Positions 12,141-45,744 of a stretch of 64,000 bases of DNA are shown here, in pieces. Origin of the DNA: Eledone cirrhosa (taxonomy: Eukaryota); assembly GCA_964016885.1 (NCBI GenBank), contig OZ024746.1, forward strand, positions 80,042,001-80,106,000, written 5' to 3'. Under the pieces are notes generated by a model. The model was given only the letters and a program-made list of their open reading frames with translations. It was not told the origin of the DNA and ran no database searches. The position numbers and the translations under genes are program-made. Position 1 is the stretch's first letter, and every line of letters starts with the position of its first letter.

Positions 12141-12937
12141 AACTCCCTATTAAAAGTCGACGTTTCGAACAGAAGTCCTTCAATGCTAGTGTGAAATTAC
12201 TTTTTAATTGATTTTTATTCTAATGTTCGAGTGACCCGTGTTTCGCAAAAGGCACGACTCAAAGCCAGCTGCCGTTATATAATGTCCGTCGCAATTTATA
12301 GTAATTAAACTGGAATTACACTTTTTCATTTGTTTATGCGACATAAGTTGATACTAAACAAATGCTAGTATAAACGCCCACAGAATATTCGAATCATGAA
12401 TCTACATCTACATCCATTACTAAGAACGGTATCGCCAGTATTCATTACTTAATAACTGTACATACATATATTATTTACTGATTCAGCCTATGATATTTAA
12501 CTTACAAATTAGGTCGCTGTCTATTTCCGGCCAGTAGAATCCCTTACTCTTTCTGTTTTAATCTGAATAGAGTTGCTGTTTAATACACTCAACAATTTAT
12601 CAACTAATGGGTTCATATTTTATCCAAACAACAATCCTATTCACTTCTATACTACGAGACAATGAAGAAGGTTCTGTTTGATCGCTAAATAACTATAATT
12701 AAATACTAGCTGACGCCGTGGAAATACCAGTTTAATTAGCAACAGCCATCAAGGATTAAAGATCAATATGAAATGTTAAATGTTTTATTCATATAGTACA
12801 TATATATATATATATATATATATATATATATATATATATAGTGGTGGAACACTGGAAGGTAATATCCGTAGTGGTAGAGCACTCAGTCCACGGGACGAGT
12901 TAGGTAGAAGTGGTTACACAACAGTTAGTTCACCATA

Positions 12938-12977
12938 CCGAGAACAATGGTTTCACCTTAGCGGATCCTCAGCTCGG
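12938..12977 (-). ncRNA. Minimal type I hammerhead ribozyme (PLE pLTR)
   Basis: CCGAG-CTGAGGA-tCCgctaaGGt-GAAAC-catt-GTT-CTCGG on the minus strand. Confidence 0.75.
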
Positions 12978-13149
12978 AATGGGCAGGGTTATAGGAACAG
13001 GAAGGACAGCCGTACGAACGCGCATGCGCAGAAATCCGGTCACTTCACACAGGCAATACTAGACTGCGTGCGAGAGGTGTAAAGGAGATAACTGCGAAAG
13101 TCCGAGAAGTTTTTAGGTTGAAAATAAAATTACAAAGAATCAGTCCGGA

Positions 13150-13658
13150 GCCTTGTAGTTATGCAATAGGTGTTTGGCGACGTGTGGACAACGTGTGAAA
13201 AATTAATTTCTCGTGTCTATTGCGTAATCTCTTTAGAATAGTTATTCGTTCGTCAATACGTAAGCCACACGTCGGATTTCCCCTTGCGTATGGCTTGGAC
13301 TTAGTGATGGCTTTCCATTGAATGGAATCTATACGTGAGTCCTTGAGGGACCATACGTGGCTCCCGAGTTTCGTGGATGAACGTCTGTCCGGGTACCTGA
13401 AGGTAGACTGGTGGTTAGGAAACGTTCCTTAAATCGGCCCTCCGCCATGCCCACATAGGATTTGACCTCCTGTGGTTCGTTTGGTCGGTTGGAAGTGACC
13501 ACAGCTTCATAAATTACAGCTGGTGTGTTGCATTGCTGTTGAAGGGGGCAAGCTTCAGGCTTACGGCAAGAGCACCCTGGTGGGGTGTTGCTCCTAGGGC
13601 TGCTGGTGATGTGGGCCTTCATGTTCTTAGCGCAGGAGTATCCTAGTTTAACCGACAC
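13150..13658 (-). pseudogene. GIY-YIG endonuclease C-terminal region of a Penelope-like (Neptune-type) element
   Basis: KLGYSC..NMK, CSCRKPEACPLQQQC, VIYEAVV...SYVGMAEGRFKERF. The mirrored arm reads WKAISKSKPYA..TCGL..ERKTIL..LNTR..CPH..KHLL. Confidence 0.85.
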
Positions 13659-14030
13659 AAAGTTAAACTAGGATACTCTTGGAAAGCCATCAGTAAGTCG
13701 AAGCCATACGCAAGGGGATATCCGACGTGTGGCTTATCTATTGACGAACGAAAAACTATTCTAAAGAGATTACGCAATAGTGATTGCCTAAACACGAGAA
13801 ATTAATTTTTCACACGTTGTCCACACGTCGCCAAACACCTATTGCATAACTACATGGCTCCGGACTGATTCTTTGTAATTTTATTTTCAACCTAAAAACT
13901 TTTCGGACTTTCGCAGTTACCTCCCTTACACCTCTCGCACGCAGTCTAGTATTGCCTGTGAGAAGTGACCGGGTTTCTGCGCATGCGCGCTCGTACGGTT
14001 GTCCTTCCTGTTCCTATAACCATGCCCATT

Positions 14031-14070
14031 CCGAGCTGAGGATCCGCTAAGGTGAAACAATTGTTCTCGG
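14031..14070 (+). ncRNA. Minimal type I hammerhead ribozyme (inverted pLTR copy)
   Basis: CCGAG-CTGAGGA-tCCgctaaGGt-GAAAC-aatt-GTT-CTCGG with palindromic helix III ACAATTGT. Confidence 0.8.
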
Positions 14071-15949
14071 TATGGTGAACTAACTGTTGTGTAACCACTT
14101 CTATATATATTGTCATATATTGTTATATATTTAGGGATAGTAATGTTGACAATATTGCCAATAAAAAGAAACACGTACCATATCATTTTCACTTTATCTT
14201 TATCTTTATCTTTATCTTTATCTTTATGCTCGTTATTCATTTGTTTCTCAAAGTTCTTTCGTCACACATTTTGTGGCCTCCTCTTTACCCACCCCCATCT
14301 CTCTCTACCCTCCTTCTCCCTACCTCTCACTCTTTCTCTTTTTCTCTCTCTCTCTTTTCTTATGTTCATGTAATTACATACTCTTACCATCGCCTTTCCA
14401 TCTGGACCGACGTTTTGTATGAAATATACAACAGTTTTAACATAAAATAAGAACACCACAGTGACCAAGGAAACTTCAGCTTGGCCGGTTGACCTGCTAA
14501 AAATAGCTACCTAAAGGGTATATTGGTAATGTAGTTCCAGATAAATCTGTGTCGGAAAACTTACACGATTGGAACAAGATCAGATCTACCTTGTGTCTGT
14601 CACAAATTTATCATTAATATACATCATATTTCACTCTATAAAACCGTCTATTAAGACGACTGGTTTTGTCTTACACCTTTATATCGCCTATTTAAATCCA
14701 GATTTCCATCGATTAATGAGTTTAAAATCAAACAAAATGTCAACATCCATAATAAATTCTGTCTATGCCATATGATGTGTATCATCAACAAGAGAAGGAA
14801 AAAAATGGAAAAGAAAGAAAACACAGAAAAAAATCCATCTCGAGTAAAATAAATATGGCAGCGACATCAGTTCCAGAGGCAAAAGAATTACATACAATTG
14901 AATGGTCACTTCCTTTTCCTATTGTTTGCCGCTTCTTCTCTTTTGTAAATTGTATTTTTGTGGTCTCATGGCAAAAGAGAAAAAAAAATCATAACATATA
15001 AAGAAAAAAATTCTCTATTATTATTTATTTCCAAGTGTCACTTGAAGAGGGAGGAACGGGAAGTGAAGGAAGAGAAGTGAGAAAGGAGAGTGAAGACCGA
15101 GGAGACAAAAAGTAAAGTGGCATGATTGCCGTTGATTCAATTGTCACAACTACAGCGCAAAAGTGAACATATTTATTTGCAAAGAGTTGAGGAGCTGTCT
15201 GGACTTTGGCAGTCTCCCATTTTCTTTATATTCTATTGCGTTTATTTATATATTTATATGAGTATAAATTGCATTTCTTTATTATTTTATTTTTATTATT
15301 TGTATTAGGAACTTTTTCGTTGCAAATTAGAAGAAATTACATTTTCCTTATAGTTTTATTTATTTATCTATCTGTTTATTTTTTCCTCTAGTATGAACGA
15401 GTTGCTTCCAGCTCCGTGTTATATGAATGATTATCAAAAACGAGGCCATAGTAGTAGAACCGTTAGGCTGTTGCCACGTTATATTTGATTGATATGGTAG
15501 AAATAACCTTACGGTATTTAGATACGTCTTCTTAACGTTCTGGGTTCAAATCATGCTGGAGGTCAATCAAACATTTCCTTTCACCCTCTTGGGCTCGACA
15601 AAATAAATACCAGTCAACTAAGGGGTCGATTTAATCGACTATTTCAATTTCCACAAGGCATTGTGCTAAATATGGTAAACGCCATTATTAATCATCAATA
15701 GTAATTTTATTACATGTCATTATTGCACAATCGAATGCAGATCTGGCTAACCTTCTCTATACTGGCTAGTAATCTGCTTAACTAACCATCTTTCTCTCCT
15801 CTTGATTAGTTTATTCGCTTTTCACCATATATATATATATATATATATATATATATATATATATATATATATATATACACACACACACACACACACATAT
15901 ATATATATATATATACATATATATATATTATATACATTTTTTCTTCAAA

Positions 15950-43779: not shown

Positions 43780-43997
43780 ATATATATATATATATATATA
43801 TATATATATATATATATATATATATATACATATATATATATATATACATATACATATATATATACATATATATATATATATATATATATATATATATATA
43901 TATATATATATATATATATATATATATATATATATATATATATATATATATATATACGATATTAACAAATGGAAACTATATTTATAAAACCATATTT

Positions 43998-44060
43998 ATT
44001 TCATTATACATATTTCAAGGACACCAAGTTAAATTATGGTGTGCTTTCATCAGATAAAAT
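43998..44060 (-). ncRNA. Type I hammerhead ribozyme (AUA family) within element 43957-44290
   Basis: ATTTTAT-CTGATGA-AAGcACACCA..TGGTGTcCTT-GAAAT-atgt-ATA-ATGAAAT. Confidence 0.75.
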
Positions 44061-44581
44061 ATAATATAATATAGATCAGTTTTATAAATAAATATTGACA
44101 TACCCTTAAAGAATGCAACCATTACTGTTGGAAGCTCCCGGATAGTGGAGTTGTAGTTTTAATTATATTATTAGTATTGGATATTTTTATTTTTAATCGT
44201 ATTTTTACCCCAAATATTTGTTGAGTGGTTTATATCAGTTATAAAAATATTTGCTTGTTGTATCCCAACAAATTAAATAGAACTTTTACATATATATATA
44301 TATATATATATATATATACCGAGTTTATATTCATAGAAATCTGGGACTTGTCTCTTTCTTCTCACTTTCTGTTGCTTAAACCATTTTGTTTGTTCACCCC
44401 AGCGTCCCCTTTATATACGTGTCCCAACGACTTTTTTTAGCCGTTGTTCGCACCAACCTGAGGTATATGGCCTTTAAAGTGATGAAATGCCTAGGACGGT
44501 TGGAAGGCCACTGATGAAGGACTTACTTTTTCATATATATATATATATATATATATATATATATATATATACATATATATA

Positions 44582-45417
44582 TATGAGAAGGAAGATTCTA
44601 TATGACGATTCGCAGCTGCTTCCTTTCAAAATGATATTGGTTCAAGAATTAACTGAGACAGATCAAGCCACCACAGAGCTGTAGGTGGGCAAATTCTTGA
44701 ACTCCCACTGCAGCTGTTCTTCTGAGTACCGATGAGGCTCATCTCTATATCAATGGTGCCGTAAACAAGTAGAGTTTTCGCTACTGAGCTGAACATAATC
44801 CTCATGAACTCCACGAACAACCACTTCACTCTCCTCGCGTAACTGTTGGGTGTGCAGTTGCCGACATTGGCGTAATCGGCCTATACTTTTTTATGGTGGT
44901 GCAACAGTATCTGTAGCGGTACATTGAAATGTTGCAGAACTTTCTGCACCCCAAACTAGACGATTTAGATACAGGACGGGGCCACAGCTCAGCCAACACG
45001 AAGTTATCTCGGGGTGTTGAGGGAAATGTTTCCTGGTCGTTTGATCTCTTTAAGGGGAAATGTAGGGTGGCTGGCAATGTCAGCAGATTGAAGCCGTTGG
45101 GTCTTTTTCCTTTGGGGATAGCTAAAGGAGAAGGTTTTCCAACATCGTACTCGAACTCTTGATGATTTGAAGGAAGGATCAGAGAGGAAATCGATGCAAT
45201 TCCACCTGAGATGACCTGGAGAATCATCGAGAATATCCGAGAACTATTCCATCAACGTATCGCCAACGACAGCTGCCATTTGTCTGACATAAGTTTTTGA
45301 AAACATTGAAAGAAAGCTGTTTTCTGTACGTTTCAGAAATATAATCAGTTTTTTTCCAGAGAGTTGTTTCTTTTTCAAAATATCTTTTCAAAATGTAGAT
45401 CTTTATACCCCACCCTG
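44582..45417 (+). pseudogene. Decayed Tc1/mariner (about DD37D, maT-like) transposase with right TIR end
   Basis: Across frames: PFKMILVQEL, STDEAHLYINGAVNK, HNPHELHEQPLHSPRVTV, YIEMLQNFL, QDGATA, REMFPGRLISLRG, FFLWG, REEIDAIPPEM. Ends CACCCTG-TA at 45411-45419. Confidence 0.85.
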
Positions 45418-45514
45418 TATATGTATATATATATATATATCCAGGAATTTTACGCGTTCTCTCTCTCTCTCTCTACTCTATATATATATATATATATATA
45501 TATATATATACATT

Positions 45515-45744
45515 TATTTATTAAAATAACAGATTAAAGTTTAAGCAAAGAATCGATGCTTTCACCCTTAACGGGATCTTCTGAAACTCAGAAGATCACG
45601 TTAAGGGTGAAAGCACCGATTCTTTGCTTAAACTTTAATCTGTTATTTTAATAAATATTTGCTCTACGGTTCTTATATATTTGCTATATATCTATCCTTA
45701 TCGAGCCCTCTTTGGATTTTAGTCTTCAAATTTATTATTTTTAC
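45515..45744 (+). mobile_element. Fold-back (TA)n element
   Basis: 45515-45583 mirrors 45587-45657. Tail GCTC..GAGC. Confidence 0.75.

Follow-up and report, generated by a model that had tools for sequence, protein, structure and literature searches.

Penelope-like elements (PLEs) of the Hydra clade have been characterized by a GIY-YIG endonuclease without the CCHH motif, a CxCX5C linker, CxxC and CxH motifs and DKT (Craig et al., 2021; PMC8557442; published sources are cited here for the parts of their text that were available). The elements analyzed in this study, from a 64-kb stretch of Eledone cirrhosa DNA (contig OZ024746.1, positions 80,042,001 to 80,106,000; hereafter the window) and from related loci, share with that clade the GIY-YIG domain lacking CCHH, the CxCX5C linker, DKT, a 3' hammerhead, a (TA)n target, an inverted 5'-truncated copy and an optional tail. 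A bulged stem-loop in the tail and its twin arrangement, the subject of this report, are not described in the available text of that paper, and the tails found here are mostly 60-110 nucleotides (nt) long, whereas a length of 30-40 nt has been described in PLEs. How the tail and the head-to-head inverted ends of PLEs arise was named there as an open question (PMC8557442).

Nicking and extension by PAc, a Poseidon PLE, involve both strands, and two internal RNA start sites, located downstream of the hammerhead, bound its tail; dimerization of the protein is predicted (Frangieh et al., 2024; PMC11167929). No conserved or duplicated start signal is defined in the available text of that study, whereas the Hydra junctions are found at UA 5-9 nt 5' of two copies of a motif. 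The behavior of PAc in vitro may be taken as a precedent for priming at two sites. In stringent long interspersed nuclear elements (LINEs; UnaL2, ZfL2-1/2), a bulged 3' stem-loop near the priming site is bound by the element protein and needed for retrotransposition; as described, there is one stem-loop, upstream of the priming site, and it is copied (PMC1636434; PMC4176376).

Hydra PLEs are unlike stringent LINEs in that there are two stems, each downstream of its junction, the second of which is never copied. In L1 twin priming, both target strands prime on one RNA, which yields an inversion; the second primer is placed at a variable internal microhomology and the segments do not overlap, whereas in Hydra PLEs a structure sets the position of the second site and the arms overlap, duplicating the same region. 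The template-boundary element of telomerase is an RNA helix 5' of the template that stops synthesis. The Hydra stem would also position a TERT-related reverse transcriptase (RT), but it stands 3' of the start site and is read through. The first-pass annotation of the window had likened the stem to such a boundary; the analogy fails, since tail-bearing arms contain the stem and run past it, and inner ends occur in solo copies. No description of the stem or of the twin arrangement was found in the available literature on PLE structure and mechanism, including the available text of bioRxiv 10.64898/2026.07.22.740005, subscription journals and Repbase notes being outside the search. The elements, the tail, the inversion and the two start sites are already known; the stem and the twin arrangement appear to be new.

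The source genome is that of an animal, 3.0 Gb in size and rich in (TA)n. The main scan covered 1.264 Mb, namely the window and unselected stretches of eight contigs, and was directed at arms that begin at a (TA)n run and have a mirror image downstream. It returned 293 distinct fold-backs, 110 with a 30-130-nt tail; 90 were left once low-complexity cases were dropped, and these were grouped in 33 clusters. Of these 90 (TA)n-anchored fold-backs, 46 had RCTC no more than 24 nt from the arm end, with GAGY beyond it; the reverse complements had none, and the mean in 200 dinucleotide shuffles was 1.06 (maximum 5). In a hold-out set (663 kb) the count was 49 of 92, and the full TA-anchored pattern occurred 91 times, compared with 8-14 in local shuffles. 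A chance origin of the anchor motif is excluded. The eight stems first listed in the window, 36-50 nt from (TA)n, were all confirmed at their positions. Each fold-back had been said to carry one, which is not so: strict anchors are present in only 12 of the 33 clusters, and the CCHH-type family at 3188-3456 is without the stem. Nor is the stem near 39696 an example of a fold-back; the copy has no mirrored arm and the stem had been misregistered, the homologous 5' strand being ACTT at 39692.

The motif has the architecture RCTC-helix-loop-helix-UN bulge-GAGY-RCY. Pairing was scored in 23 families, one copy per family, selected by anchors only; 14 were from this genome and nine from marine metagenome contigs found with the Hydra alignment. 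When the bulge before GAG was set at 2 nt, a stack of three inner pairs formed in 17 of the 23 families, as against just 1-3 with bulges of 0, 1, 3, 4 or 5 nt. Inner pairs 1, 2 and 3 were paired in 22, 23 and 18 of the 23 families (permutation means 14.4, 14.0 and 9.1; p = 5e-5, 5e-5 and 1.5e-4), with five to six pair types, in a segment that had at first been taken for loop. The outer R-Y pair was G-C in 15 families, A-U in six, G.U in one and A.C in one (p = 0.014). CTC/GAG was invariant in all 23, the set having been chosen on those anchors, so that no covariation can come from that segment in this set. The covariation proposed earlier is significant by permutation in the inner helix and the outer pair, but the CTC/GAG to which it had been assigned barely varies. 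The core does co-vary outside the 23-family set, where it reads GTTC/GAAC in L185, L278 and cluster 30. In L186, L190 and L196, which form a single clade in the protein tree, the outer pair is U-A (TCTC/GAGA). The bulge begins with U in 21 of the 23 families, and RCY follows GAGY in most. The p-values overstate independence, because the families are related; in a quick protein tree the changes at the outer pair reduce to few events.

RNAalifold returned the same fold, unprompted, from a 36-row alignment that was 98.8% paired, a value reached by none of 500 shuffles. This alignment was partly hand-picked (16 rows were chosen after viewing; three long-loop families and several weak second stems were omitted), and the structural claim rests on the 23-family test. 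By eye, the motif was seen in four of the six new Hydra consensi of PMC8557442: at the 3' ends of Hydra-2_Amil (coral) and Hydra-2_Ajap (sea cucumber), in two copies where Hydra-1_Ajap begins, and in Hydra-1_Crog (sea louse), there with a single mismatch. It was doubtful in Hydra-1_Amil and not seen in the Hydra-1_Obim consensus inspected in the same way. A covariance model finds the twin stems in full-length loci and had no match at Neptune-type or CCHH-type ends. A scan of the window with Rfam 15 gave no match at gathering score among the best 150 of 296, nearly all of which were microRNA models on microsatellites or hairpins. The bulged stem-loop is real and conserved across animal groups. 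The 3' word of the motif, GAGYRCTC, is nearly or fully self-complementary (e.g. window 12877-12884) and could permit RNA-RNA pairing or recognition in duplex DNA.

The mirrored arm of a fold-back terminates at an inner end just before the stem (stem 1), while the tail-bearing arm reads straight through stem 1 to an outer end at (TA)n. Inner ends lay 9 to 5 nt before the R of RCTC in 112 of 130 cases from 14 families and in 43 of 49 in the hold-out; the offset had first been given as 3-8 nt. The TA sites in the 40 nt upstream fall within -9 to -5 in just 17 of 83 instances. In family A the inner end is at the TA at -6 (identical in 6/6 long arms), and the TAs at -2 and -16 are almost never used. 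The outer end is constant per family (identical in 30/30 tail-selected loci of family A); the 36-50 nt from stem to terminus holds for the eight examples and is fixed within a family, but across 14 families the outer end lies 22-79 nt after GAGY. The hammerhead-to-stem distance varies (27-59 nt in this genome, 39-73 nt in outside loci), so the inner end tracks the stem and not the ribozyme; the hammerhead as setter of the inner end was rejected on this variation from 27 to 73 nt. The proposal of a conserved cis-acting structure that fixes the positions of PLE junctions is supported.

A second copy of the stem, beyond the outer end, had been missed in the first-pass annotation. Full-length elements from metagenomes carry two motif copies in the 5' untranslated region (UTR). 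A fixed rule was applied to 16 metagenome loci with the start of the open reading frame (ORF) and at least 184 nt upstream, and 11 had two stems; the controls gave four reverse-strand matches and two inside the ORF. Four further loci had been dropped as too short or as inverted or foreign upstream. The spacing between stems 1 and 2 in the metagenome loci was 61-67 nt in eight of nine and 83 nt in one. In this genome, a second stem 5-9 nt past the outer end of read-through copies was predicted before looking; the read-through patterns required CTC within 2-15 nt, and the independent parts are therefore the recurrence, the offset, the inner helix, the 3' word and the ORF. Stem 2 was clean in two of the four families checked, degenerate in one and absent in one. 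The F1 pattern had 398 matches (overlaps counted), as against none for the reversed pattern, and in 15 of 15 F1 loci fetched (11 sites) the outer TA was at -6, and the second stem that followed was clean, having a helix of the CTAC/GTAG type, a bulge of 2 nt and GAGCACT; the ORF came next in most, with 87 nt from stem 2 to the ATG. At three sites of the 45661 family, TA (TG in one) was at -6 and stem 2 had a short inner helix. In family A, 22 of 25 loci had TA at -8, TCTC-CAG, about 75 nt, CTG, a 1-nt bulge and GAGYRCT. In L213, the end of the inverted copy lies about 9 nt ahead of stem 2. Twin stems about 60-90 nt apart are mostly found at the junction of the pseudo-long terminal repeat (pLTR) and the 5' UTR of full-length Hydra elements. 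In L413 (G000:C1:91476000-91484200), F1 units of 3543 nt are arrayed in tandem, their Hydra ORFs unbroken and their twin stems separated by 78 nt; the array is a candidate for work in vitro.

Head-to-head pairs in the unselected 1.264 Mb joined an inner to an outer end in 68 of 70 cases, with one inner-inner and one outer-outer pair. Solo copies in the same sample ended at the outer site in 49 cases and at the inner site in 32, one of the latter being more than 1.9 kb long. Ten family A inversions were collected without selection for tails, and the mirrored arm extended further 5' in four, by 14, 424, 538 and 822 nt; it is thus not a fold-back copy of the tail-bearing complementary DNA (cDNA). 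Taken together, the inner-outer pairing and the sometimes longer mirrored arm make both ends look like priming sites rather than a stop. Divergence between the arms within insertions was lower than between insertions in F1 (3.7% vs 9.5%), cluster 1 (1.1% vs 9.5%) and cluster 2 (3.0% vs 5.7%), with no significant difference in two small clusters. Arm likeness is consistent with two primings on a single RNA. Among the short elements, many form near-perfect hairpins whose loops measure 0-8 nt. The centers of F1 inversions (window 35412-35514 and other F1 copies) cluster in the long stem II of the hammerhead, as if both cDNAs stall there; as stem II is itself a long palindrome, F1 hairpin centers cannot separate fold-back from joining of cDNAs.

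The fold-backs are 5'-truncated copies of several Hydra-clade PLE families. Families A, F1, F2 and the 45661 family have RT together with a GIY-YIG domain at the C terminus, without CCHH, in a single ORF, unbroken in L413 and L414. Families A, F1 and F2 have the CxCX5C linker, with CxxC and CxH around conserved E and N (these cysteines and histidine are invariant in alignment A1), together with DKT (not DKG) and an RWR N-terminal motif, of the RWK type, and lack GxKF. Type I hammerhead patterns (predicted) were found in several copies each of five of 14 families and in one copy of F1; eight short or decayed families had none. The pattern was present in 40 of 90 outside loci from metagenomes or metagenome-assembled genomes (MAGs), of which 50 had no hammerhead call, 16 were binned as microsatellite soon after the hammerhead, 11 as other and 13 as having the 3' word. 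The Hydra families here insert into (TA)n, and the F1 unit measures 3543 nt, as against generally less than 3 kb in the Hydra clade. Proteins of A, F1, F2 and the 45661 family are 32-50% identical over the segments compared; since a Hydra ORF was reached from each of F1, F2 and the 45661 family at this level of identity, they are distant families of one clade. The earlier statement that the families are unrelated is rejected, as is the idea that the small families are non-autonomous.

The 16701 family, offered as an example with TCC..GGACAC, has DKG, GxKF, CX4CxxC and CCHH and is a Neptune-type PLE, not a Hydra element; the label follows the motif descriptions in PMC8557442 and not a tree with named Neptune elements. 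TCC/GGA as a compensatory variant of the motif was rejected as belonging to this other clade. The CCHH-type family at 3188-3456 has the same fold-back anatomy without the stem. Pfam gave no significant family, RT or endonuclease, for three Hydra ORF fragments (L006), which match 9791 protein representatives. A search for longer relatives among protein homologues found none, and the viral contigs searched held no relatives. A monomer model of a Hydra protein (predicted local distance difference test score 90) had TERT as its best fold match, which has no bearing on RNA binding. Hydra PLEs and (TA)n runs in contigs filed as bacterial genomes or MAGs (L261-L270) most likely reflect contamination by the host animal. 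In L324, and at 3955-4240 of L270, different PLE families stand back to back in one (TA)n run, mimicking composite elements.

What is established comprises the covarying structure, its conservation across animals, the twin arrangement, the fixed offsets, the rule that an inner end is paired with an outer one, and the similarity of the arms. We consider it probable, while well short of sure, that the two stems place RTs so that both nicked (TA)n strands prime cDNA on one Hydra PLE RNA. The stem is likely an RNA recognized by the element's own protein, the simplest reading of the sequence pattern. The RNA strand would fold and each stem would be bound by the protein, probably as a dimer with one subunit per stem, and the 3' TA end of the target would pair with UA just upstream of the stem. 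The upstream (inner) cDNA would lead, and the downstream (outer) cDNA would follow through stem 1 by displacement. Joining of the two cDNA 3' ends would give a head-to-head inversion, and a single completed cDNA a solo copy with or without the tail. The PLE tail would then be just the interval from one priming site to the other. Stem 2 would never be copied, which would explain its being visible in tandem or full-length copies only. The further proposal of a programmed double priming, in which a dimer sits on the twin hairpins and each subunit, using the same RNA, primes one strand 5-9 nt upstream, while tail and inverted pLTR are the footprint of this and other PLE clades use other paired signals, is in our view evenly poised.

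Several observations weigh against double priming at paired stems. The second stem of family A is degenerate, with a T-C mismatch and a 75-nt insert, and the prediction failed in F2, in which no RCTC/GAG stem was found past the outer end, the word TAGCACT and a hairpin of GCAC/GTGC being all that was seen there. The inner helix is weak in some second stems (L206, L212 and L188), and three of the 16 metagenome 5' ends had one stem and two had none. In free-energy folding of naked RNA, stem 1 often pairs with stem 2 instead of both forming. One family ends at -11/-13 despite a TA at -6 (three ends). Neptune-type and other CCHH-type PLEs show inner/outer inversions without the motif, which is therefore not a PLE-wide requirement. 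The start sites of PAc are not strand-specific (PMC11167929), and the evidence that the sense strand is the one that folds is thin (7 G.U vs 2 A.C). The detector favors similar arms, and in family A the divergence of 3.1% vs 3.4% is barely above background. Partner-arm stubs were sought 5' of family A solo copies and one was found (L023); as most had none, concerted double priming is not established for every insertion.

Recognition might instead take place in DNA, the GIY-YIG endonuclease binding the motif in cDNA or duplex and cutting at TA 5-9 nt off, so that the junctions would be resolution cuts. GAGYRCTC is nearly palindromic and TA is the target of the endonuclease; resolution by the endonuclease is the origin that Craig et al. 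give for the tail (PMC8557442), and the D. virilis endonuclease required the tail for cutting of plasmid DNA (cited in PMC11167929). Sequence-free covariation of the inner helix, however, needs a single-stranded fold, the excess of G.U over A.C is on the sense strand, and PAc synthesis starts in vitro at both tail boundaries (PMC11167929); we hold recognition in DNA to be unlikely, while deserving to be taken seriously. The fixed offsets would also follow if the stems directed cleavage or termination of the RNA 5-9 nt upstream, giving two RNA species that prime at their 3' ends as LINEs do, and the ends of RNA-seq reads coincide with the PAc start sites (PMC11167929). Such 3'-end formation leaves both the 68/70 inner-outer pairing and the shared variants of the two arms unexplained, and PAc primes internally on longer templates (PMC11167929), which makes it quite unlikely.

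The route first proposed, in which one cDNA from the outer end folds back and its second strand stops at the stem as at a template boundary, would account for the likeness of the two arms and for the many short near-perfect hairpins, and self-priming has been proposed for PLE inverted junctions (PMC3846280). It is contradicted as a general route by the family A mirrored arms that are longer by up to 822 nt, by the 32 solo copies at the inner site, and by the same offset before stem 2, where no fold-back ends; we regard it as very improbable, although it may still explain some short hairpins. Finally, the stems could serve transcription or translation of the ORF, stem 2 being close upstream of its ATG (87 nt in F1), with the junctions, which are at TA, set by TA microhomology alone. 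This is barely plausible, as 66 of the 83 upstream TAs lie outside -9 to -5, yet 112 of 130 ends fall inside, and as family A picks the TA at -6 over its neighbors. Double priming on one RNA remains the account that we favor.

Table 1. Positions of PLE copies and their parts in the window
Feature	Position	Strand	Remarks
Hydra PLE family A, tail-bearing (outer-primed) arm, putative	12841..13652	-	Endonuclease remnant, 3' UTR, hammerhead, stem 1, 64-66-nt tail to (TA)n
Family A, mirrored (inner-primed) arm, putative	13680..14103	+	Ends at TA 6 nt before stem 1
Short inverted piece, junction of family A arms	13647..13681	+	
Frameshifted C-terminal GIY-YIG endonuclease remnant	13143..13667	-	CxCX5C linker, no CCHH
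Type I hammerhead	12938..12977	-	Pattern search; predicted cut 42 nt before stem 1
Family A stem 1	12878..12900	-	ACTC, GTCC/GGAC inner helix, 1-nt bulge, GAGTGCT
Family F1 fold-back, inner and outer end	35332..35514	-	Stem 1 35406-35380; full-length Hydra ORF in L413
Fold-back	35555..35721	+	Stem 1 35650-35672, G.U outer pair
Family F2 fold-back	36015..36222	+	Hammerhead core 36095, stem 1 36161-36182; full-length Hydra ORF in L414
Tail-bearing solo copy of family F1, without mirrored arm	39624..39760	+	Decayed stem 39692-39715
Fold-back	41459..41719	+	Stem 1 41656-41679
Fold-back, long-loop stem 1	43375..43778	+	Stem 1 43687-43739
Fold-back, long-loop stem 1 (45661 family)	45511..45744	+	Stem 1 45661-45709; Hydra ORF, second stem in read-through copies
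Further fold-back, outside the first-pass list	16937..17467	-	Stem 1 17000-16972
F2 fold-back	7330..7473	-	Stem 1 starts 7395
F2 copy, short arm, shortened tail	8043..8166	+	Stem 1 at 8129
F2 fold-back	40655..40839	+	Stem 1 decayed (ACTG) at 40772
Solo tail-bearing copy, another family	34755..35037	+	Stem 1 at 34955
Two further solo ends with stem	1418..1983	-	Stems at 1478 and 1973
Neptune-type PLE fold-back (TCC..GGACAC)	16402..16759	+	Without motif; negative control
CCHH-type PLE fold-back	3188..3456	+	56-60-nt tail, stem absent; negative control

Tails of a second class, 35-60 nt long and without the stem, were seen in the window at 3188-3456, 36305-36648 and 40877-40958 and in clusters 3, 4, 8 and 21; a TTTCR word is often present near the inner end, one family is CCHH-type, and the class may carry the priming signal of another clade. 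Long fold-backs with tails lacking a canonical stem are present at 6459-6799 and 38692-38998, the latter with what may be a remnant that lacks the inner helix. A non-LTR (long terminal repeat) retrotransposon, with AP-endonuclease (apurinic/apyrimidinic) and RT frames, is present in two broken copies, at 8964-12033 (-) and 28989-32446 (+), with a mutual identity of about 67-69%. A frequent repeat of about 190 bp, resembling a short interspersed nuclear element, is found at 22542-23218 (in tandem), 25614-25837, 39847-40078, 46556-46748, 58232-58722 (as an inverted pair) and 63815-64000.

A conserved hairpin that covaries, is duplicated and keeps a fixed distance to each junction is a likely signal, and the question becomes one of simple mutagenesis. 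The hairpin is a short marker with which Hydra PLEs, missed by Pfam, can be found and delimited, and a model for the finding of internal start sites by a telomerase-related enzyme. If the twin hairpins are start signals, they would explain the tail and the mirror-image ends of Hydra PLEs.

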